A stretch of 64,000 nucleotides of DNA from a virus: positions 1 through 64,000 of IMG/VR virus record IMGVR_UViG_3300027708_000025; one strand, 5' to 3'. The notes beneath the pieces are model-generated. The model searched no databases, was not told the DNA's origin, and worked only from the letters and a program-made list of their open reading frames with translations. The translations under genes and the position numbers were made by a program. Positions 24,388 to 45,913 of this stretch are shown here, in pieces. Each line of letters starts with the position of its first letter. Position 1 is the stretch's first letter.

Positions 24388-24417
24388 ATTATATCCATCC
24401 TATTTTATTGTGAAATC

Positions 24418-24741
24418 TGTGACAGGTTATTCTGTTACGAGGAAACCTGTCGAAACCCTAGTCAGCGTTTAGGCTGCCAATGCGAAACGTGAGTCGTTTG
24501 CGTTTACTTTTTTTTCTTCTTTTTACATCGTTGCTGATGTGCTGTCCACTCTGTTACTCTTTGCCCTGTCGAAACTATGCACCCCCATCAAAAGCATTCT
24601 TAATCTCCAGCATACTTGTGGCGATCAATCCACTTTCAACCTTCTCTGATCCTGCGTCCAGTTTAGAATACTTTTGGTGGAGGTGGGGGGATTCGCACCC
24701 CCGTCCAGAACCTGTTTCTCTTTGCTTCATACAGCAATAAC
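24418..24741 (-). ncRNA. ssrA: Circularly permuted two-piece tmRNA
   Basis: 3'-end piece (GACGGGGGTGCGAATCCCCCCACCTCCACCA, ends 24675) precedes the 5'-end piece starting GGGGGTG at 24586; G3-U70 pair; tag 24469-24501 reads ANDSRFALAA*. Confidence 0.93.
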
Positions 24742-24755
24742 TAACATTATAACGT

Positions 24756-24763
24756 TATTTATA
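24756..24763 (-). promoter_or_regulatory. T4-type late promoter upstream of tmRNA
   Basis: Exact TATAAATA. Confidence 0.7.
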
Positions 24764-24766
24764 CAA

Positions 24767-25435
24767 CTAGTCAATCAATACAGCATCATATGCTTCACGG
24801 TAAGATATAAAATCTTTGATGTAATCATTGCGCTTCTTAATGAACACTTGTGGATGTTCAGAGTCAACTGCTATCATAATTACAATTTGTGATACTGGTA
24901 TTCCAGTTCGCTCTTCATACATGACTGCATACGCAGAACATTGCATGAAGTATCCTTTAATCCAACTCTCTTCTTTTAACTTGCCTGAAGTCTTAAAGTC
25001 AATGATAGATAGCTTGCCATCATATTCTGCAATACAGTCAACTCTACCAGCAACTTTTAGATGATGAGAATACAAAGGAATCTCTAGCGCATGAATGTTG
25101 TTTACATGTTCATCTAATAAAGGTTGTAGAGACTTGAACATAGCAACAGAATCGGGCATTGTTTTACGTGCATAGTCTTCTTCGTTGTTCAAATAGTTTT
25201 CACAAATCTTGTGTACTCTAGTTCCACGGCTGGATGCTTTAGTTGAAATACGATTGGCTTCTTCTTCGCCCACACGTTTTCTCCATTCGAGGATTTTATC
25301 TTTGCCGTGCTGAGAGGTAATGGTAGTAACAGAGGGATATAGTAATCCCTCTGGTGTCTTGTAGAATCGTTTGCCGTTTACTGTCTCGGTTTCCAAATCA
25401 TAGTCAATGTCGCATCCAATGTGTTTAAAGTTCAC
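24767..25435 (-). CDS. PD-(D/E)XK exonuclease
   Basis: YPSVTT, RGTRVH, AGRVDCIAEYDGKLSIIDFKTS, YFMQCSAYA. Confidence 0.9.
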   Translation of the reverse strand: MNFKHIGCDIDYDLETETVNGKRFYKTPEGLLYPSVTTITSQHGKDKILEWRKRVGEEEANRISTKASSRGTRVHKICENYLNNEEDYARKTMPDSVAMFKSLQPLLDEHVNNIHALEIPLYSHHLKVAGRVDCIAEYDGKLSIIDFKTSGKLKEESWIKGYFMQCSAYAVMYEERTGIPVSQIVIMIAVDSEHPQVFIKKRNDYIKDFISYREAYDAVLID

Positions 25436-38233: not shown

Positions 38234-38308
38234 TGGTGGGCAGAGAGAGAATTGAACTCCCACTCAAGCGATTATGAGTCGCCTGCTTTACCATTAAGCT
38301 ACCTGCCC
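38234..38308 (-). tRNA. tRNA-Ile2(CAT)
   Basis: Cloverleaf, GGCGACTCATAATCGC arm as in bacterial ileX; CCA end. Confidence 0.85.
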
Positions 38309-38315
38309 TAAAACT

Positions 38316-38399
38316 TGGTATGAGAGGAGGGACTCGAACCCTCAATCCTTGCGGCGGGAGATTTTAAGTCTCCTGTGTATACCATTCCACCACTCTCAC
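38316..38399 (-). tRNA. tRNA-Leu(TAA)
   Basis: Cloverleaf with long variable arm; CCA. Confidence 0.93.
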
Positions 38400-38404
38400 A
38401 TAAC

Positions 38405-38481
38405 TGGCCTGACTGGAGGGATTCGAACCCCCGACCGACGGATTAGAAATCCGTTGCTCTATCCTACTGAGCTACAGTCAG
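38405..38481 (-). tRNA. tRNA-Arg(TCT)
   Basis: ACGGA-TTTCTAA-TCCGT; CCA. Confidence 0.93.
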
Positions 38482-38500
38482 AATTAATTTCTATACATGT

Positions 38501-38529
38501 AGTATAGTTTATATTGATTTGTGTGTCAA
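38501..38529 (-). promoter_or_regulatory. Sigma70-type promoter for the last three tRNAs and downstream operon
   Basis: TTGACA-17-TATACT. Confidence 0.7.
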
Positions 38530-38530
38530 G

Positions 38531-38604
38531 TGGAGCGGGGTAGGAGAATCGAACTCCTGACTTCAGTTTGGAAGACTGAGGTAATACCATTTTACGAACC
38601 CCGC
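38531..38604 (-). tRNA. tRNA-Gly(TCC)
   Basis: Cloverleaf; TCCA end. Confidence 0.93.
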
Positions 38605-38610
38605 ATTTTT

Positions 38611-38684
38611 TGGCATCTCCTGAGAGACTCGAACTCCCACTTACGGTTTTGGAGACCGCAGTACTGCCATTATACTAAGGAGAC
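38611..38684 (-). tRNA. tRNA-Trp(CCA)
   Basis: GCGGT-CTCCAAA-ACCGT; CCA. Confidence 0.92.
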
Positions 38685-38689
38685 ATTTG

Positions 38690-39223
38690 TTACGGATTCT
38701 TTGCAGAATGTGGTACATCAAACACGAATGTAATCCTGTCTACTGTACCATTGTTCCACGCAGAATGATATTTCTTATTGTCAAACCAGAAAAATGTTCC
38801 TGGTTCTATTTGTCTTTCTTCACCATCTACTTCATACAAGTAAGTGCCTTGCAATGATAAATGATATCTATCTCTTGTCTCATAATATGTACCATCGTCA
38901 ACGTGGCGACCAACACTATCGTTTGGATTTAATTTAAAGAAAGCGGCTCTTGAAGTTTGCGTAATGTCGTGCTTCTTAAGATACTTTCTCACTTCAGTAT
39001 ACTTATCATAAAGCGGTGTGCGTCTTTGCAAATCAGAATTTTTAGGATTCTCATCTGGACTACGAACCATCGCCATCACTAGAGGAAGAAACCCATACGG
39101 ATTCTTTTCCCCACCAATCTTAGAATAAGTAGAAACTGCTTGCCAATCTGTATCGTCAATCTGCCCTAGAATTTTACTTATGTCAATTCCAGTTTCAATG
39201 AATCTAAAATTACTCATCATCAT
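38690..39223 (-). CDS. Aspartyl/asparaginyl beta-hydroxylase-like 2OG-Fe(II) oxygenase
   Basis: HVD...RYHLSL...WFDNKKYHSAWN...RITFVFD. Confidence 0.85.
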   Translation of the reverse strand: MMMSNFRFIETGIDISKILGQIDDTDWQAVSTYSKIGGEKNPYGFLPLVMAMVRSPDENPKNSDLQRRTPLYDKYTEVRKYLKKHDITQTSRAAFFKLNPNDSVGRHVDDGTYYETRDRYHLSLQGTYLYEVDGEERQIEPGTFFWFDNKKYHSAWNNGTVDRITFVFDVPHSAKNP

Positions 39224-39869
39224 ATTCCATCAATTGCATACTTCCCGTATGCGGAAAATCGTATCTATCAAAGTGGTCAAAATTTGTTTTACCAATTGGC
39301 ATAATATTCACACCAACAATGATTCTATAATTGCAATCAGTAGGACTTGTTTGATGCGTTGCCCATGCGGGAAACATAACTAACGTACCTGCGACAAAAG
39401 GTAACTCTTCTTGAGACTTCAACATCAATTCATTTTTATCTGAAATTGCAGGTTGTATTACATATTTCTCTGCACCTAGATTTGGAAATACTGTTCCGCT
39501 TGCATTACCATCAGCATCAAACAAATGAAATGAACCACCCAAGAAACTATTCGCATGACTGTGCATGTGATGAAAGCCACCAGCTTTTTGTCTAGTCGCC
39601 CACATACTTGTAATCCCACACTCATCATAATAACCCATATCATCCATTGCATACTTACCACAACTGTGAATGAAGTCTGTTAACTTTTTAACTTTATCAT
39701 CTTTGTGTAAGTTTGCTCTAGTGATTTGAAGCCCATTCCTTTCACGTTCAGAAAGATATAGATTATCCTGTGCAAGATATCGCACTAAGAATTCTTGGTC
39801 ATTCTCAAAGTTTGGATAATGAAATCTCCAAACTGGTGTGTAGAATAGTTTATGTAATTCGACTTTCAT
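39210..39869 (-). CDS. Putative 2OG-Fe(II) oxygenase
   Basis: HSHANSFLGG, LVMFPAWATH, RIIVGVN. Confidence 0.8.
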   Translation of the reverse strand: MKVELHKLFYTPVWRFHYPNFENDQEFLVRYLAQDNLYLSERERNGLQITRANLHKDDKVKKLTDFIHSCGKYAMDDMGYYDECGITSMWATRQKAGGFHHMHSHANSFLGGSFHLFDADGNASGTVFPNLGAEKYVIQPAISDKNELMLKSQEELPFVAGTLVMFPAWATHQTSPTDCNYRIIVGVNIMPIGKTNFDHFDRYDFPHTGSMQLMEYDDE

Positions 39870-40045
39870 TTGTTTTCAAACTCATCATCATACAAACCCA
39901 TCTCTTGGCTGATACGAACCATTTCATCCAATGCGGCTTCTTGGCGTTTTTTTGCAAATGCTCTTTGCTCTTCTTCGGTTCCTAATTCATATCCTTTATC
40001 AGAATGAATCTCTTCGGCTGCCGCAATATTCTTTTTGTCTATCAT
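39866..40045 (-). CDS. Small hypothetical protein, 59 aa
   Basis: Hand-translated MIDKKNIAAA...ALDEMVRISQEMGLYDD; overlaps both neighbours. Confidence 0.6.
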   Translation of the reverse strand: MIDKKNIAAAEEIHSDKGYELGTEEEQRAFAKKRQEAALDEMVRISQEMGLYDDEFENK

Positions 40046-40515
40046 AAAATCACCCTATGATATTCGTAATTAACTGTATCTTCATTTTCTCTAAAAACAA
40101 CTGCACCATTACGCAAATGAAAACGTCTAGCCAATTCAGTCTTTGGACTTAGCGTAAGGTATCTTTGAATTTCTGGTTTGTTTTCTTTGATGTGACTAAC
40201 AGCATCAAAAATTAATGTACGACCGGCACCTGGAGCATAACTCCAAATGGTATAAAAAATTGCAACAATAGGTTCAGATGAAACTTGAAATAACTCTGTT
40301 TCTTTTGTTGGAATTTCTGTCTGATAACTTACGCATGTGATTGCTTTCACTTTGTCATCTGGATCACGCAACACAAAGATATCTTTGTTGTCGCCAACCC
40401 TATCAACATGTGGAATATGAGGGCGCACAGGATCCTCACTTAACATACTCATTACACTATCAGTAAAAGATTTTATTAGATATAACATTTTTTTATTCTC
40501 ATTTTTTATTCTCAC
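40042..40515 (-). CDS. Hypothetical protein, possible GNAT-like fold
   Basis: DPVRPHI, FYTIWSY.PGAGR, TLSPKT..A.RFHL.NGA. Confidence 0.65.
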   Translation of the reverse strand: MRIKNENKKMLYLIKSFTDSVMSMLSEDPVRPHIPHVDRVGDNKDIFVLRDPDDKVKAITCVSYQTEIPTKETELFQVSSEPIVAIFYTIWSYAPGAGRTLIFDAVSHIKENKPEIQRYLTLSPKTELARRFHLRNGAVVFRENEDTVNYEYHRVIL

Positions 40516-40528
40516 TTCTCTACATTAA

Positions 40529-40603
40529 TGGTGGAGGATGGGAGGATCGAACTCCCACTTCAGACTTGCAAAGCCCATGTGCTCCCATTATCACTAATCC
40601 CCC
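40529..40603 (-). tRNA. tRNA-Ala(TGC)
   Basis: G3-U70; TTTGCAA loop; CCA. Confidence 0.9.
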
Positions 40604-40605
40604 AT

Positions 40606-41130
40606 TTAACTCGGTGTTATGGTGTTAAACGAAATCACCGTTTTTCTTTTATGTCCTAAGTTTATAGGAGAACGATGCCACAAAGTTGCTGGCATCGTTA
40701 AAATATAACCTTCTTCGACATTAGGAATTACAATAGATTCTGTTTTTTGATTCCTAATTTGAGTCTTAACATCATCACTTGGTAACTCCAGATAATAAAC
40801 ATTTGTCCAATTTGCTGTGCCATGAACATGCCAACCATGAAAACTATTGTTATAGTACTGTTGAAACCAACAATTTAAATATCCAAATTGGGTAAATCCT
40901 AATTTTGAATATACATTTTTCATATGCTCAGTTAGAGAAGGACGTAAAATATTCCAATATTTTCTCTCGACATTCTCTTCAACATACCAATCAGTATTAG
41001 TAATTTTTTTGTCATCATTGATAAAAATTGACATACTATCAATGCTTTTGAGAAGAACATTTTTTAAATTGTCATGTTCTTCAAATTTAGATACCGCATA
41101 TGGACAGTCAATGTAATTGATATCAATCAT
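40606..41130 (-). CDS. Putative 2OG-Fe(II) oxygenase
   Basis: WFQQY, HGWHVH, VYYLELP, HRSP, KTVISFN. Confidence 0.8.
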   Translation of the reverse strand: MIDINYIDCPYAVSKFEEHDNLKNVLLKSIDSMSIFINDDKKITNTDWYVEENVERKYWNILRPSLTEHMKNVYSKLGFTQFGYLNCWFQQYYNNSFHGWHVHGTANWTNVYYLELPSDDVKTQIRNQKTESIVIPNVEEGYILTMPATLWHRSPINLGHKRKTVISFNTITPS

Positions 41131-41145
41131 TATTTTTCAATAAAT

Positions 41146-41349
41146 TTATTTTAGCATTTCTACAACTTCTTCTAGTGTCTCACTTACTTCCCATGTGCCA
41201 TGAGGAGGTCCATAAACAAATGTTACATCTTCAATTACTCCATCTTCACGGGTAACAGTATTTCTGTGTATCGTAACAATTAAATCTTTTCTGATTGAAA
41301 CTTTGTGTCCTCTAAACTCTGGACTTGAATTCGTTAGTGTTATAAACAT
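41146..41349 (-). CDS. FlbD-like small protein
   Basis: MFITLT...I.KDLIVTI...VSETLEEVVEML. Confidence 0.55.
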   Translation of the reverse strand: MFITLTNSSPEFRGHKVSIRKDLIVTIHRNTVTREDGVIEDVTFVYGPPHGTWEVSETLEEVVEMLK

Positions 41350-41375
41350 GATATTATCCTTTAAAATTATTAAAC

Positions 41376-41449
41376 TGGTCTCGGTAGCAGGAATCGAACC
41401 TACGCTCTATCGTCCCAAACGACAAGTGATACCATTTCACCATACCGAG
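41376..41449 (-). tRNA. tRNA-Pro(TGG)
   Basis: Cloverleaf; TTTGGGA loop; CCA. Confidence 0.9.
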
Positions 41450-41459
41450 TTATTTATAC

Positions 41460-41533
41460 TGGTGCCCCATGACAGAATCGAACTGCCGTTACCTGAGTAC
41501 AAAACAGGTGTTCTACCATTTAACTAATAGGGC
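41460..41533 (-). tRNA. tRNA-Thr(TGT)
   Basis: CCTGT-TTTGTAC-TCAGG; CCA. Confidence 0.85.
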
Positions 41534-41538
41534 GAAAC

Positions 41539-42282
41539 TTAAATTGCTTTCTCAATTATATTCTTAGCTAAATTATCCACATCGGCTCTTATGGTGCCTC
41601 CGAGAATAACAATTGCATACTGCTCACCATTCTTATGTACTATCATAACAAGACACTTACCAGCCGCATTCGTTGTGCCAGTTTTGGATACTTCAATGAT
41701 ATCAAATTTATTCATCAACTTCACGTTAGTGTTATTGACTGAAATGTGTTTTTCTTTATTCTTCTTATCTACAACAGTTAAATCGTATCTACTCAATGCT
41801 GATATCTCACGTATTTTATCATGTCTATACGCATCTGTCAACAAGACAACCAAGTCCCTTGCGGTACTGGTATTCCTTGCGCTTAGACCAGACGTATCAT
41901 CAAATTTTGTATTGTACATCTCTAGCGCAATTGCACGTTTATTCATTTGGTAAACTGTCCACAATTTACCGCCCATGCTTTCTGCTAATGCTTCTGCGGC
42001 TCTGTTGTCACTTTTGATTAACATTAAATTTAATAATTCTTCTCTAGTAAACTTATTGTGTGAATAAAACATTCCTTTGTATGGAACTTTCTCATTCAAT
42101 GGAACTCCACTTTCAATTATGACAAGTGCGGTCATCAATTTTGTAATGCTTGCTATTGGTCTTATTGTATCAATTTCAGAATCAACAATTGGATACTGTT
42201 TAGTGATATTGTATGTGTAGACTGTAATCGCACTAGCACTTAATGCCGACAGCAATACTAAAGATAAGATTATTTTTTTCAT
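41539..42282 (-). CDS. D-alanyl-D-alanine peptidase, S11 family (PBP7/PbpG-like)
   Basis: SITK, SDN, KTG motifs; signal peptide MKKIILSLVLL; start trimmed to avoid tRNA-Asn. Confidence 0.9.
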   Translation of the reverse strand: MKKIILSLVLLSALSASAITVYTYNITKQYPIVDSEIDTIRPIASITKLMTALVIIESGVPLNEKVPYKGMFYSHNKFTREELLNLMLIKSDNRAAEALAESMGGKLWTVYQMNKRAIALEMYNTKFDDTSGLSARNTSTARDLVVLLTDAYRHDKIREISALSRYDLTVVDKKNKEKHISVNNTNVKLMNKFDIIEVSKTGTTNAAGKCLVMIVHKNGEQYAIVILGGTIRADVDNLAKNIIEKAI

Positions 42283-42296
42283 ATGATTCTTTGTAA

Positions 42297-42371
42297 TGGC
42301 TCCAGAGGCAGGGATCGAACCTACGACCAATTGATTAACAGTCAACTGCACTACCGCTGTGCTACTCTGGA
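42297..42371 (-). tRNA. tRNA-Asn(GTT)
   Basis: Cloverleaf; CTGTTAA loop. Confidence 0.94.
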
Positions 42372-42379
42372 ATAGAAAA

Positions 42380-42455
42380 TGGTTGCGGGTGAAGGATTCG
42401 AACCTCCGTCCTTTAGGTTATGAGCCTAATAGTCTGACCTCTGACGTAACCCGCT
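42380..42455 (-). tRNA. tRNA-fMet(CAT), initiator-like
   Basis: 1:72 mismatch, GCGGG/CCCGC acceptor, CTCATAA loop. Confidence 0.85.
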
Positions 42456-42469
42456 ATAATATATATGTA

Positions 42470-42545
42470 TGGAGTGAGTGACAGGACTCGAACCTGCATT
42501 ATACGGACTTGCAAACCGTTGCCTAGCCTTTCAGCGCACACTCAC
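42470..42545 (-). tRNA. tRNA-Cys(GCA)
   Basis: TTGCAAG loop; U73 discriminator. Confidence 0.85.
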
Positions 42546-42552
42546 ATAAATT

Positions 42553-42680
42553 TGGCGCTCTACAGGATTCTCACCTGTTCACTGGAGACCCTATAATCAG
42601 GGTTTTTATCCCTCTACTGCCATGAATTGCGAATTCATCGTAGAACCCAAGTTGCGAACTTGGCGTGGAAATATCAGAGC
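42553..42680 (-). ncRNA. tRNA-like structured RNA of unknown class, 128 nt
   Basis: GCTCT/AGAGC closing stem plus GCCA end, T-arm-like hairpin, three extra hairpins. Confidence 0.65.
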
Positions 42681-42687
42681 ATAAACT

Positions 42688-42762
42688 TGGCGGTCTGTAG
42701 GAGAATCGAACTCCTGTAAGTGGATAGACAATCCACAGTAATAACCTCTATACGAACAGACC
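42688..42762 (-). tRNA. tRNA-Asp(GTC)
   Basis: GTGGA-TTGTCTA-TCCAC; CCA. Confidence 0.92.
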
Positions 42763-42768
42763 AAAACT

Positions 42769-42853
42769 TGGTGGAGATGATAGGGATCGAACCTATTGTG
42801 ACTTAAGTCGGAAGATTTACAGTCTCCTGCCATACCATTACGGCGGCATCTCC
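42769..42853 (-). tRNA. tRNA-Tyr(GTA)
   Basis: CTGTAAA loop; long variable arm. Confidence 0.93.
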
Positions 42854-42854
42854 A

Positions 42855-42980
42855 TGGTATTAGATTAGTTGACGCACTATTTGCTACGCTCAACGGAATT
42901 AGTGGCCACCTTACCGTTTATGTACGCAGTTACTCAGGCGTTACGATTGCCCATGGCTTACGTCAACTAATCTAATACCA
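42855..42980 (-). ncRNA. Structured RNA candidate closed by a 20-bp perfect stem
   Basis: Inverted repeat 42855-42874 / 42961-42980. Confidence 0.6.
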
Positions 42981-42981
42981 C

Positions 42982-43183
42982 ATTTAATTACACTGGATGA
43001 TTGACAAAAATAACAGTTTTGAACCTGCCCTACCATGTCGTCCATGGATTTGCTTGTCAACCACATTACAGACCAAGTTGTTCCAGCGTGATTCGCTCGT
43101 TCATGTAATCTAGAAGTGCCAGTCCGTCAACTGGTTCTCACTTGTTAAATTACCTACTGGCTTGGTAACCAATGTAATTAAAT
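42982..43183 (-). ncRNA. Multi-stem structured RNA candidate, about 200 nt
   Basis: 15-bp closing stem and four internal helices; mismatches become G-U on minus strand. Confidence 0.65.
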
Positions 43184-43184
43184 C

Positions 43185-43260
43185 TGGTACACCTAGGGGG
43201 AATCGAACCCCTCGTTTGCGCCTTGAAAGGGCGCCGTCCTAACCGTTAGACGATAGGTGC
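43185..43260 (-). tRNA. tRNA-Glu(TTC)
   Basis: GCGCC-CTTTCAA-GGCGC; CCA. Confidence 0.94.
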
Positions 43261-43265
43261 ATAAT

Positions 43266-43278
43266 TTTTTAAAGAACA
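43266..43278 (-). promoter_or_regulatory. boxA-like antitermination element
   Basis: TGTTCTTTAAAAA between promoter and tRNA-Glu. Confidence 0.7.
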
Positions 43279-43306
43279 TTTGATTGATTTCTCAATCTAT
43301 GAATAG

Positions 43307-43369
43307 AGTATAACACTCTAAACATTTCCTGTCAACAACTATTTTTGGTAACTGTTGTTTTTTATTAAC
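43307..43369 (-). promoter_or_regulatory. Repeated early promoter unit inside tRNA array
   Basis: Palindrome variant, AAAATAGTTG, TTGACA-17-TATACT. Confidence 0.8.
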
Positions 43370-43371
43370 AC

Positions 43372-43459
43372 TGGCAGAGAGTATGAGATTCGAACTCATG
43401 CACCGCTTTCGCAATGACAGTTTAGCAAACTGCTCCTTTAACCACTCAGGCAACTCTCT
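43372..43459 (-). tRNA. tRNA-Ser(GCT)
   Basis: TTGCTAA loop; long variable arm. Confidence 0.93.
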
Positions 43460-43462
43460 ATA

Positions 43463-43552
43463 TGGCGGAAGCGGTGAGATTCGAACTCACGGAACATTTC
43501 TGTTCGCTAGTTTTCAAGACTAGTGCCATAAACCGGACTCGACCACACTTCC
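43463..43552 (-). tRNA. tRNA-Ser(TGA)
   Basis: CTTGAAA loop; long variable arm. Confidence 0.94.
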
Positions 43553-43558
43553 ATAACT

Positions 43559-43633
43559 TGGTGCGCCCTGAGAGAATCAAACTCCCACTTCAACGTTCGT
43601 AGCGTTGTGTAATATTCATTTTACTAAAGGCGC
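43559..43633 (-). tRNA. tRNA-Arg(ACG)
   Basis: CAACG-CTACGAA-CGTTG; atypical D and T loops. Confidence 0.87.
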
Positions 43634-43644
43634 ATAAAAACATT

Positions 43645-43721
43645 TGGTGCCCTCTCTCAGATTCGAACTGAGACTTTACGGCTTCTAAGACCGATCTCTC
43701 TACCAATTGGAGTAAGAGGGC
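43645..43721 (-). tRNA. tRNA-Leu(TAG), short variable arm
   Basis: CTTAGAA loop; 77 nt. Confidence 0.85.
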
Positions 43722-43724
43722 ATT

Positions 43725-43798
43725 TGGTTCCCAGAGCAAGAATCGAACTTGCGATAAAGGCTTATCAAGCCTACGTTATACCATTTAACTATCCGGGA
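43725..43798 (-). tRNA. tRNA-Ile(GAT)
   Basis: TTGATAA loop; CCA. Confidence 0.9.
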
Positions 43799-43799
43799 T

Positions 43800-43958
43800 T
43801 AATTTCGATTTTCATCTCCCACTACTAACTATTGCTTCCCAATTTATCGTCCATTGGCACCCGTGGTAGGGCTTTCAATGCTCATCGGCCTTGCGTTCTA
43901 GCGCAAGTGATCCTTGGGATAGGACTGCTAGGCCTTAACTTGCCTAGCATCAAGTGAA
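43800..43958 (-). ncRNA. Structured RNA candidate, about 160 nt
   Basis: Four consecutive hairpins plus possible pseudoknot. Confidence 0.5.
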
Positions 43959-43959
43959 T

Positions 43960-44034
43960 TGGTACCTTGTGACAGGATCGAACTGCCGACCTTCTCCTTG
44001 TAAGGGAGACACTCTACCGCTGAGTTAACAAGGC
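43960..44034 (-). tRNA. tRNA-Val(TAC)
   Basis: TCTCC-CTTACAA-GGAGA; CCA. Confidence 0.94.
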
Positions 44035-44043
44035 AATTTTCTT

Positions 44044-44119
44044 TGGGGTGACCTATGGAATTCGAATCCATGCTATCGGAATCACAATCCGAGGTGCTAA
44101 CCGCTGACACTAAGGTCAC
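44044..44119 (-). tRNA. tRNA-His(GTG)
   Basis: TTGTGAT loop; C73; position -1 is T. Confidence 0.9.
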
Positions 44120-44131
44120 ACCAAAGAAAAC

Positions 44132-44206
44132 TGGTAGGGGCACCGAGAATTGAACTCGGATTTACTGGTTAAAAGCCAGCTACTCTAGCCGTTGAGTTAT
44201 ACCCCC
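44132..44206 (-). tRNA. tRNA-Lys(TTT)
   Basis: GCTGG-CTTTTAA-CCAGT; CCA. Confidence 0.92.
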
Positions 44207-44210
44207 AAAT

Positions 44211-44285
44211 TGGTGGTGACAGTTGGATTTGAACCAACGACCGATTGCGTATGAAGCAATTGCACTACCGCTGTGCTATGTCACC
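44211..44285 (-). tRNA. tRNA-Met(CAT), elongator
   Basis: ATTGC-TTCATAC-GCAAT; CCA. Confidence 0.88.
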
Positions 44286-44292
44286 TTTTATT

Positions 44293-44366
44293 TGGCAGAG
44301 GGTACAAGGATCGAACTTGTGCTAACAGAGTCAAAGTCTGGTGTGCTACCGCTACACTAACCCCCA
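44293..44366 (-). tRNA. tRNA-Gln(TTG)
   Basis: CTTTGAC loop; CCA; first tRNA of the array. Confidence 0.9.
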
Positions 44367-44388: not shown

Positions 44389-44401
44389 TTGTTAAAGAAC
44401 G
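44389..44401 (-). promoter_or_regulatory. rrn-type boxA antitermination element
   Basis: CGTTCTTTAACAA, 22 nt upstream of first tRNA. Confidence 0.8.
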
Positions 44402-44427
44402 TTTGTAATATATTCGATGATATACAC

Positions 44428-44464
44428 AAAGAAAAACCCCCTAGAGTTTTCAGTCTCTAGGGGG
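44428..44464 (-). terminator. Intrinsic terminator (attenuator) in front of tRNA array
   Basis: CCCCCTAGAG-ACTGAAAA-CTCTAGGGGG then TTTTTCTTT. Confidence 0.9.
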
Positions 44465-44516
44465 CTTGTCTTTGTATTCTCTTTGGACTTATGGTCCTCA
44501 GGTATAACAAGCCCCC
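44460..44516 (-). promoter_or_regulatory. Antiterminator helix, mutually exclusive with the terminator
   Basis: GGGGGCTTGT (44507-44516) pairs perfectly with ACAAGCCCCC (44460-44469), which includes half of the terminator 5' arm. Confidence 0.8.
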
Positions 44517-44614
44517 ATCACTGGTGCGTGGCAATCGGATTTCTCTGAGCGAGAAATACTCTGCCACGTAATCGGCATATAATTTCTTGTTGAGAGTTTC
44601 GATATTAAATTCAT
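44498..44614 (-). CDS. Putative attenuator leader peptide, 38 aa
   Basis: Not in ORF track; MNLISKLSTRNYMPITWQSISRSEKSDCHAPVMGACYT*; start 1 nt after upstream stop; 19 amino acids, no Phe. Confidence 0.78.
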   Translation of the reverse strand: MNLISKLSTRNYMPITWQSISRSEKSDCHAPVMGACYT

Positions 44615-44615
44615 T

Positions 44616-44897
44616 TTAGTTTACTGTTTCTTCGTTAAAAATATTAGACCATTTCTGGAGTTTTGCTTTCTTGTTTGCGGATGCTTTATCTACGTCATCA
44701 ATGTTAATGATACCTGTTTCAATCATCAACTGAATCATACAAAATAAATCACCAACTTCTTCTGTCAATCTGTCTCGGTTAGATGCACCATTGTGTTCAC
44801 CATCTAAACCAAATCTAAAAACTTTACTGATTGCCTGTGTCACTTCGGCACATTCTTCTTGTGCAATTAGTAAAACTTCTTTTTCAACACTATTCAT
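44616..44897 (-). CDS. MazG-like nucleotide pyrophosphohydrolase
   Basis: QEECAEVTQAISK...LTEEVGDL. Confidence 0.8.
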   Translation of the reverse strand: MNSVEKEVLLIAQEECAEVTQAISKVFRFGLDGEHNGASNRDRLTEEVGDLFCMIQLMIETGIINIDDVDKASANKKAKLQKWSNIFNEETVN

Positions 44898-45572: not shown

Positions 45573-45913
45573 GCTAGTTCCTTTTGTTTATCCAAAACTT
45601 GTTGATACGTCATTGTGGGTTCTTTGCTGGTGATAGCACCATCAAACTGTAACTGAGATTTCTCAAACCACGAAAGGTAATCGTCACTTTCCATAGACCA
45701 ATCAGTCATGTACTCACTAGAATAATCTGTATCAGTTTCAATACCACTCAATGCAAACTTCACAAACTCATTATAGTCTATGTTAAGGGGAACGTCAAGT
45801 ATCTTATACTCGGAACCGCCTTTTGCTTTCCAATACTGAGGGCACTCACCTTCACCATCCCAATCATGTGCGCCATAATTTTCGTGGTACTGAGTGCGGA
45901 TAACTATCATCAT
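45569..45913 (-). CDS. Conserved phage hypothetical protein
   Basis: TQYHENYGAHDWDGEGECPQYWKAKGG. Confidence 0.75.
   Translation of the reverse strand: MMIVIRTQYHENYGAHDWDGEGECPQYWKAKGGSEYKILDVPLNIDYNEFVKFALSGIETDTDYSSEYMTDWSMESDDYLSWFEKSQLQFDGAITSKEPTMTYQQVLDKQKELA

Follow-up and report, generated by a model that had tools for sequence, protein, structure and literature searches.

The 64,000-nucleotide stretch of DNA analyzed here (the window), part of the complete 150-kb genome of an uncultured T4-like phage, carries a short leader open reading frame (ORF) and an intrinsic terminator ahead of its tRNA genes. Judged from sequence and folding, this element is likely a ribosome-dependent transcription attenuator that senses tRNA supply, in which slow decoding of a near-complete codon set would lead to transcription of the phage tRNAs. 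An initial annotation had read the locus as a leader that responds to almost all tRNAs and gates a terminator before the tRNA genes; reading frame, amino acid coverage, isoacceptor usage, covariation and modelled ribosome masking all agree with that core reading. Sequence comparison with related loci indicates that the element is real, conserved and very probably functional.

The phage's capsid protein is 75% identical to that of Stenotrophomonas phage DLP6 and 73% identical to that of Methylophilales phage Melnitz. Its genome encodes another ribosome-rescue function, a two-piece (permuted) tmRNA of betaproteobacterial type (window 24411-24788, minus strand), and the type of this tmRNA suggests a betaproteobacterial host. 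The layout of the initial annotation, a 38-codon ORF followed by a 10-bp complementarity, a terminator, a boxA and a tRNA gene, holds in every element and position (Table 1), and its counts of distinct codons and amino acids in the leader are borne out. For Leu, Ser, Arg and Ile the leader draws on two codon boxes each, and its internal Met13 is invariant. The leader ORF begins 1 nt after the TAA of the MazG-like gene (44618-44616), an abutment that probably reflects translational coupling. The nearest strong promoter candidate upstream is inferred to be the source of a transcript that would run through small ORFs into the leader; between this promoter and the attenuator terminator, the only terminator-like site on the same strand is a weak 5-pair hairpin (44577-44562) within the leader. 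A second copy of the leader element was not found elsewhere in the phage genome.

Table 1 Features of the attenuator and tRNA region in the window, and the two-block region of a related jumbo phage.
Feature	Coordinates	Strand	Remarks
Sigma70-type promoter candidate	45770..45798	(-)	11/12 consensus match; nearest strong one upstream
Second upstream sigma70-type promoter candidate	45457-45429	(-)	10/12 consensus match
MazG-like NTP pyrophosphohydrolase gene	44616..44897	(-)	93 aa; PHROG 4856, E 1.8e-24
Leader ORF, 38 codons	44498..44614	(-)	19 amino acids, Phe absent; 31 distinct codons
Hairpin in leader, codons 16-29	44527..44568	(-)	MFE; outer TGGC/GCCA helix invariant in family
Antiterminator 5' strand (region 2), GGGGGCTTGT	44507..44516	(-)	third base of codon 33 to codon 36
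Small GGAC/GTCC hairpin	44485..44497	(-)	directly after stop, within antiterminator loop; loop length differs among relatives
Antiterminator 3' strand (region 3), ACAAGCCCCC	44460..44469	(-)	shared with terminator 5' arm
Intrinsic terminator	44428..44467	(-)	10-13 bp stem, 8-nt loop, U-tract from 44436
Short promoter-less spacer	44402..44427	(-)	most relatives: ~90-nt allele with TTGACA..TATACT promoter
rRNA-type boxA (Nus antitermination signal)	44389..44401	(-)	ahead of first tRNA; conserved in relatives
tRNA block 1	43372..44366	(-)	Gln, Met, Lys, His, Val, Ile, Leu, Arg, Ser, Ser
Internal sigma70 promoter and second boxA	43266..43335	(-)	11/12, extended -10; drives Glu-onward tRNAs
Remaining 14 tRNAs	38234..43260	(-)	downstream of internal promoter
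Jumbo phage G001, two-block region	G001:C1 16824-21640 and 29672-33900		L352, L353, L159; also L111, L167

Region 2, GGGGGCTTGT (44516-44507), is perfectly complementary to region 3, ACAAGCCCCC (44469-44460), which lies 28 nt beyond the leader stop, and the 2:3 duplex reaches -22.8 kcal/mol. The competing terminator stem (44464-44455/44446-44437, extendable to 13 pairs) has -22.6 kcal/mol and a core that is invariant in the family, and the attenuator region folds far more stably than shuffled sequences (z -6.5). We modelled the nascent RNA, with the terminator 3' arm still unmade, as the initial annotation had suggested, with and without a ribosome footprint. With the ribosomal A site at codons 2-29 the antiterminator forms (P 1.0), at codons 30-31 it forms partially, and from codon 32 on it is abolished (0) and the terminator takes over (P 1.0), so that a mid-leader stall yields the antiterminator and a ribosome at the end of the leader yields the terminator. 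The initial annotation had cautioned that stalls at the last His, Ala, Val and Gly codons may still block the antiterminator: in the modelled masking this applies to Val32 and Gly34, which are probably not sensed, Ala30 is borderline, and His29 is sensed after all. The ribosome-free nascent RNA also forms the antiterminator (P 1.0). Because there is no 1:2 protector, the untranslated leader predicts read-through, and the default state of the switch is probably on. In the full transcript at equilibrium the terminator is still favoured under a mid-leader stall (P about 0.8); the decision must therefore be kinetic. The hairpin within the leader, which neither includes region 2 nor pairs with the antiterminator strand, is a candidate RNA polymerase pause hairpin. 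Across 34 loci modelled in the same manner, a mid-leader stall gave an antiterminator probability of at least 0.76 in 32, and a ribosome at the stop abolished the antiterminator in 24, did so partly in 4 and did not in 6; in these 6 loci, which have longer tails, a ribosome at the stop is already past the antiterminator core.

In the mechanism that we propose, ribosomes finishing the MazG-like gene would re-initiate on the leader, and RNA polymerase would possibly wait at the in-leader hairpin. Prompt decoding would bring the ribosome to codon 31-32, from where it would cover region 2 until it reached the stop; the terminator would form and transcription would end near 44430. Scarce, cleaved or uncharged tRNA would leave the ribosome lagging at codons up to about 29-30, or absent, upon which regions 2 and 3 would pair first and polymerase would read through. 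After read-through, boxA and Nus factors would protect the untranslated tRNA transcript, and the new phage tRNA would restore decoding and thereby close a negative feedback loop. In the hisL attenuator, slow decoding of any codon placed in the leader relieves attenuation, and the effect depends on position (PMC4046918). The delay at a single hungry codon may be too brief compared with that at the tandem codons of trpL and hisL.

We compared the window locus with 19 close relatives in IMG/VR (73-100% nucleotide identity), collected by MazG linkage and by nucleotide similarity and pattern searches; a further 27 metagenome loci were found, many of them from the same samples. The leader frame is open in all 19, with its stop about 30-36 nt before the terminator, and none of them keeps the terminator and loses the frame, the pattern that the initial annotation had named as contrary to its reading. 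At least 6 distinct indels occur in the leader ORF of these relatives, all of 3 or 6 nt, and the spacer after the leader stop varies freely (26, 30, 32 or 33 nt). The stop of the MazG-like gene and the leader start stay adjacent or overlapping (TAA-A-ATG, TAATG or ATGA). All 20 amino acids are present in 11 of the 19 leaders, and Trp-Gln and Gly-Ala-Cys residues are invariant within the family. Covariation of the 2:3 helix within the family is uninformative, the antiterminator and terminator cores being invariant. In L010 and L088, a family-A leader is followed by a mosaic array, in which the tail beyond tRNA-Val has the gene order of a different phage group.

To obtain an unbiased set, we fetched arrays from more distant phages by a promoter-plus-boxA pattern that takes no account of leader content, and searched them for an ORF of 20-55 codons that uses 17 or more amino acids and whose end is separated by 20-45 nt from a terminator that has an antiterminator duplex. 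The codon-diverse short ORF with antiterminator that the initial annotation had proposed to look for upstream of related tRNA arrays was found in 39 of the 48 arrays with enough upstream DNA. All 20 amino acids occur in 33, a tally that is slightly generous since the best start was taken for each ORF. Four of the nine remaining arrays have an attenuator and escaped the filter: three of them have short leaders matched to their block, and one has a leader with 17 amino acids. When a terminator-only pattern was used, such an ORF preceded 4 of 7 tRNA-linked terminators versus 2 of 98 others (Fisher P 1e-4). About eight groups can be distinguished among the leaders; their peptides have little similarity, and the groups may nonetheless share an ancestor. 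Amino acid coverage, a 22-43-nt gap and the pairing are kept throughout. Across the groups, changes in region 2 are accompanied by changes in region 3 and in the terminator 3' arm, as the initial annotation had anticipated; the covariation rests on this comparison across families that may share an ancestor, in which cognate 2:3 duplexes are strongest, at a mean of -20.4 kcal/mol, with -12.5 when strands from different families are paired and -5.5 when windows upstream are used. In many leader groups a TATAAT -10 box precedes the ATG by 7-8 nt, which puts the ATG at the expected transcription start, as in a leaderless mRNA; other leaders have Shine-Dalgarno-like sites upstream.

Codon diversity of the window leader alone is weak evidence, and significance is reached only across relatives. 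Its 31 distinct codons compare with a shuffle mean of 28.2 (P 0.12), and we rejected this count (31 of 38) as stand-alone evidence. Its 19 amino acids give P 0.04-0.08 against shuffles and 0.014-0.02 against phage genes, and the sensed part, with 16 amino acids, gives P 0.13-0.2. For the relatives, a fixed test of the last 30 codons was weaker for long leaders, and we replaced it by taking the start that a promoter, a Shine-Dalgarno site or an overlap with the preceding stop indicated. A codon other than the initiator was counted as sensed if it lay 10 nt or more ahead of region 2. On this basis, amino acid diversity of the sensed codons exceeds the null in the 8 leader groups (combined P 1e-9 against the proteome and 1e-7 against shuffles, from group medians). 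Three leaders, in groups that include C and D, fit all 20 amino acids in 28 or in 30-31 codons. Of the cases in which a leader has Leu, Ser, Arg or Ile at least twice, 27 of 30 draw on both tRNA boxes when one leader is taken per group, versus 18-19 expected (P 1e-4 to 5e-4), and 93 of 102 do so when every leader is counted. Since both isoacceptor boxes are sampled, selection apparently acts on the tRNAs called rather than on the peptide, and synonymous choice in the leaders appears to reflect tRNA species rather than peptide function.

These patterns bear on whether the switch could be thrown by a phage or host protein, by an arrest peptide in the exit tunnel (of the tnaC/speFL type), or by the leader RNA or peptide acting in trans. 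The conserved hairpin within the leader and a conserved small ORF after the terminator in one family could be read in this sense. We consider it very improbable, as the families have no peptide motif in common, the synonymous-codon patterns point to tRNAs and no Rfam family is matched at its threshold; moreover, tnaC-like stalling at the stop would favour termination here.

Leader content also follows the tRNA cargo. Codon 23 is Phe in most close relatives, Ser in the window genome and in L006 and L212, and Leu in L098, L220 and L227. The Phe-to-Ser and Phe-to-Leu alleles both accompany arrays without tRNA-Phe, a gene that was found nowhere in the window phage genome, and none of the Phe-containing leaders whose array is visible at that position goes without tRNA-Phe. 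Two loci are counterexamples: L010 has a leader without Phe (codon 23 is Ile) and yet a rearranged array that includes tRNA-Phe, and the leader of L212 keeps Cys and Asn codons with tRNA-Cys and tRNA-Asn both missing. The sequences are no more than suggestive of a Phe codon lost along with tRNA-Phe, in two or three events. The jumbo phage G001 (285 kb) has two tRNA blocks, each with its own attenuator, and the amino acids are divided between the two leaders according to block. Block 1 supplies Gly, Glu, Leu, Asp, Met, Ala, Val, Thr, Pro and Asn tRNAs; in its 21-codon leader, 18 of the 20 non-initiator codons belong to the block, and of the block's 9 amino acids other than Met the leader covers 8 (P 0.004). 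The second block supplies Ser, Trp, Met, Arg, Cys, Lys, His, Phe, Gln, Ile and Leu tRNAs, together with a Tyr-type tRNA read by eye; its 38-codon leader contains all twelve block amino acids and neither Asp nor Glu, and Gly, Ala and Pro are confined to its last five codons. In the megaphage LR756504.1 (636 kb), a leader of 29 codons with abundant Leu, Ser and Cys (L365:7888-7977:+, in the element L365:7888-8320) stands before Leu, Leu, Ser, Cys, Ser, Ser, Leu and Leu tRNAs. On this comparison, the window's form, with one array and all amino acids, reads as the limiting case of a general design.

We put at slightly better than even the chance that the element is a programmable, autonomous tRNA homeostat, whose leader would serve as a checklist of the encoded tRNAs and which any shortage, including cleavage by an anticodon nuclease, would switch on. 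If true, this would be a counter-defence sensor that responds to what many unrelated defence systems bring about, and not to any one protein. The element might also sense general ribosome speed or transcription-translation coupling, as perturbed by ribosome damage, antibiotics, toxins or host shut-off, with the mixed codons providing an average. The read-through predicted for the untranslated state and the short delays expected from single codons are compatible with such a sensor, and uORFs such as toiL sense several ribosome-targeting drugs, according to work cited in PMC12360218. However, averaging requires neither all 20 amino acids nor both isoacceptor boxes, and it leaves unexplained the loss of Phe with tRNA-Phe and the partitioning of leaders by tRNA block, which makes a pure speed sensor improbable. 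Sensing of tRNA supply, the reading that we favour, overlaps with sensing of ribosome speed, and the element probably responds to both.

The reach of the switch depends on the promoters downstream. The window genome has 24 tRNAs, all on the minus strand from 44366 to 38234, that cover 19 amino acids; the first is tRNA-Gln, starting at 44366. No match above 9/12 to the sigma70 promoter consensus lies between the terminator and 43335, and no T4 late promoters were found at the array head. The tRNAs after block 1 have consensus sigma70 promoters at 43335, 41841 and 38529, the first of which would drive the tRNAs from Glu onward without the attenuator. Because block 1 has no promoter in the window genome and in several relatives, it needs read-through. 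The initial annotation's statement that termination keeps the tRNAs off thus stands for the first ten, which have no promoter of their own, and not for the other 14. In the window genome, the switch would be the sole gate for the first ten tRNAs and would add to promoter-driven transcription of the rest. In 33 of 42 family rows, a second promoter (TTGACA..TATACT) lies between terminator and boxA, and in most relatives the switch would usually be a booster on top of this promoter rather than a gate. The promoter-less spacer allele occurs also in L002, L004, L013, L214, L215, L224 and L235. An assembly artefact behind the missing promoter was rejected, as the same allele comes from several independent samples. 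L007 has a leader identical to that of the window and yet a promoter-bearing spacer; that the two spacer alleles (window 44427-44402 and L007:3475-3570) join identical leaders suggests recombination between alleles. The boxA fits a function in Nus-mediated protection of the untranslated transcript, by analogy with the boxA of rrn operons (PMC12360218).

The downstream promoters of the relatives are one argument for an ordinary terminator of the MazG operon, placed after a small-protein gene, with the tRNAs on their own promoters and the complementarity incidental or vestigial. A strong promoter follows the terminator in most relatives, some leader residues (Trp-Gln and Gly-Ala-Cys) are invariant in the family, and L304 has the same terminator type and promoter without a leader. 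Set against these points, control terminators do not have such ORFs and duplexes, the peptides differ across families and yet coverage, gap and pairing are kept, and the promoter-less block 1 has to be reached by read-through. We therefore regard an ordinary terminator as highly unlikely and retain attenuation by tRNA supply.

Two non-coding stretches on the minus strand lie within the array. One is a G+C-richer spacer of ~160 nt between tRNA-Val and tRNA-Ile (43959-43799), without an Rfam match. The other is a long stretch with inverted repeats directly after tRNA-Glu (43184-42854), without an Rfam match at the gathering threshold.

The window element resembles the leaders of amino acid operons (trpL, hisL, pheL, leuL, the multivalent thrL and the ilvGMEDA leader) in its short ORF and its alternative antiterminator and intrinsic terminator, in termination when the ribosome is at the leader end and read-through when it lags (here modelled), and in sensed codons that match what the operon supplies. 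It differs from them in its location in a phage and its cargo of tRNA genes, in calling 17-20 amino acids once or twice each, with no runs, instead of 1-3 repeatedly, in carrying a boxA after the terminator and often a second promoter, and in having no 1:2 protector, so that its untranslated default is predicted to be on where that of his is off (PMC4046918). In sequence and folding, the element thus has an open leader ORF, an intrinsic terminator and a mutually exclusive antiterminator within ribosome reach; it has neither the 1:2 protector nor control codons clustered for one to three amino acids. The Rfam His_leader model gave a sub-threshold 28.5 bits (cut-off 49; E 0.04). Because two defining features and an Rfam match are missing, we file the element as a variant, not a member, of the trp/his/thr/ilv class.

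Closer in output is E. coli pheST, where a leader-peptide attenuator lets the supply of charged tRNA control part of the translation machinery; pheST senses one amino acid and yields a synthetase, whereas the window element senses many and yields tRNAs. T-box riboswitches are antiterminator/terminator switches that bind one uncharged tRNA directly and need no translation. The window element is likewise an antiterminator/terminator switch set by tRNA status, and no Rfam match to the T-box architecture (stem I with specifier loop, T-box antiterminator bulge) was obtained for it even at E 10. Arrest-peptide attenuators such as tnaC and speFL rely on a conserved stalling motif and on Rho, whereas leaders of the window class have differing peptides and an intrinsic terminator. 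Efficient translation leading to termination and slow translation to expression is also the logic of the mgtL, corL and mgtM leaders, the toiL uORFs and the tufB leader (PMC12360218). Those act via Rho and sense Mg2+, drugs or EF-Tu (PMC12360218); the window element has an intrinsic terminator and a leader that mirrors the tRNA set.

Phage tRNAs counter tRNA-depleting defences by replacing cleaved or depleted host tRNA (PMC10264068), a theme shared by two further papers (PMC11555353 and PMC11464382). The purpose of the switch is likely such replacement. Terms for promoter or attenuator occur neither in PMC10264068 nor in a survey of viral tRNA clusters (PMC6409571), and searches of the open literature, which leaves subscription journals largely outside coverage, found no description of an attenuator on phage tRNA genes. 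The role of phage tRNA arrays has been debated for 50 years, between codon compensation and replacement of depleted or cleaved host tRNAs; an array that is raised upon slow decoding would, if true, be direct evidence from regulatory wiring for replacement. It would also carry attenuation beyond amino acid operons to tRNA genes and widen the set of sensed amino acids from 1-3 to all 20. The element is common among the related uncultured phages that we sampled (39 of 48 arrays), with leaders too short for routine annotation. A reporter of roughly 250 nt would suffice to address the question, and the element would be a ready-made biosensor for tRNA stress.

Searches with blastn and tblastn returned no cultured phage with a homologous leader, and the attenuator is absent from the examined stretches of the arrays of six cultured phages (DLP6, PA5oct, XG4, PHB04, AsFcp_1 and BUCT-ZZ01), of which DLP6 is the nearest by capsid protein. 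A family-specific terminator pattern, a narrow test that leaves bacterial versions possible, had one match in GTDB genomes, an ordinary terminator without a leader.

Several related loci vary around the array head. In L304 (2100-2330), the same terminator type and a promoter precede the tRNAs without a leader ORF, and the gene upstream ends in a sequence complementary to the terminator arm, a possible relic or variant. L128 has an array with a stop-codon-reading tRNA (TTA anticodon), in which no attenuator was detected. Non-coding motifs, GGAAACGAGGTCC and AAACGGGCGG, are conserved before the tRNAs in L150:4780-5160, L274:9650-10060 and L278:6310-6666, and also in L352 and L199, and this stretch is possibly an undescribed RNA. 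A conserved ORF of ~55 aa lies after the attenuator terminator and ahead of the non-coding stretch in L150, L274, L278 and L199, and is absent in L352. In DLP6 (KU682439.2), a hammerhead-like core (CTGATGA...GAAAC; L361 about 1020-1060) and a tmRNA-like stretch, both unannotated and recognized by eye, lie upstream of the tRNA array.
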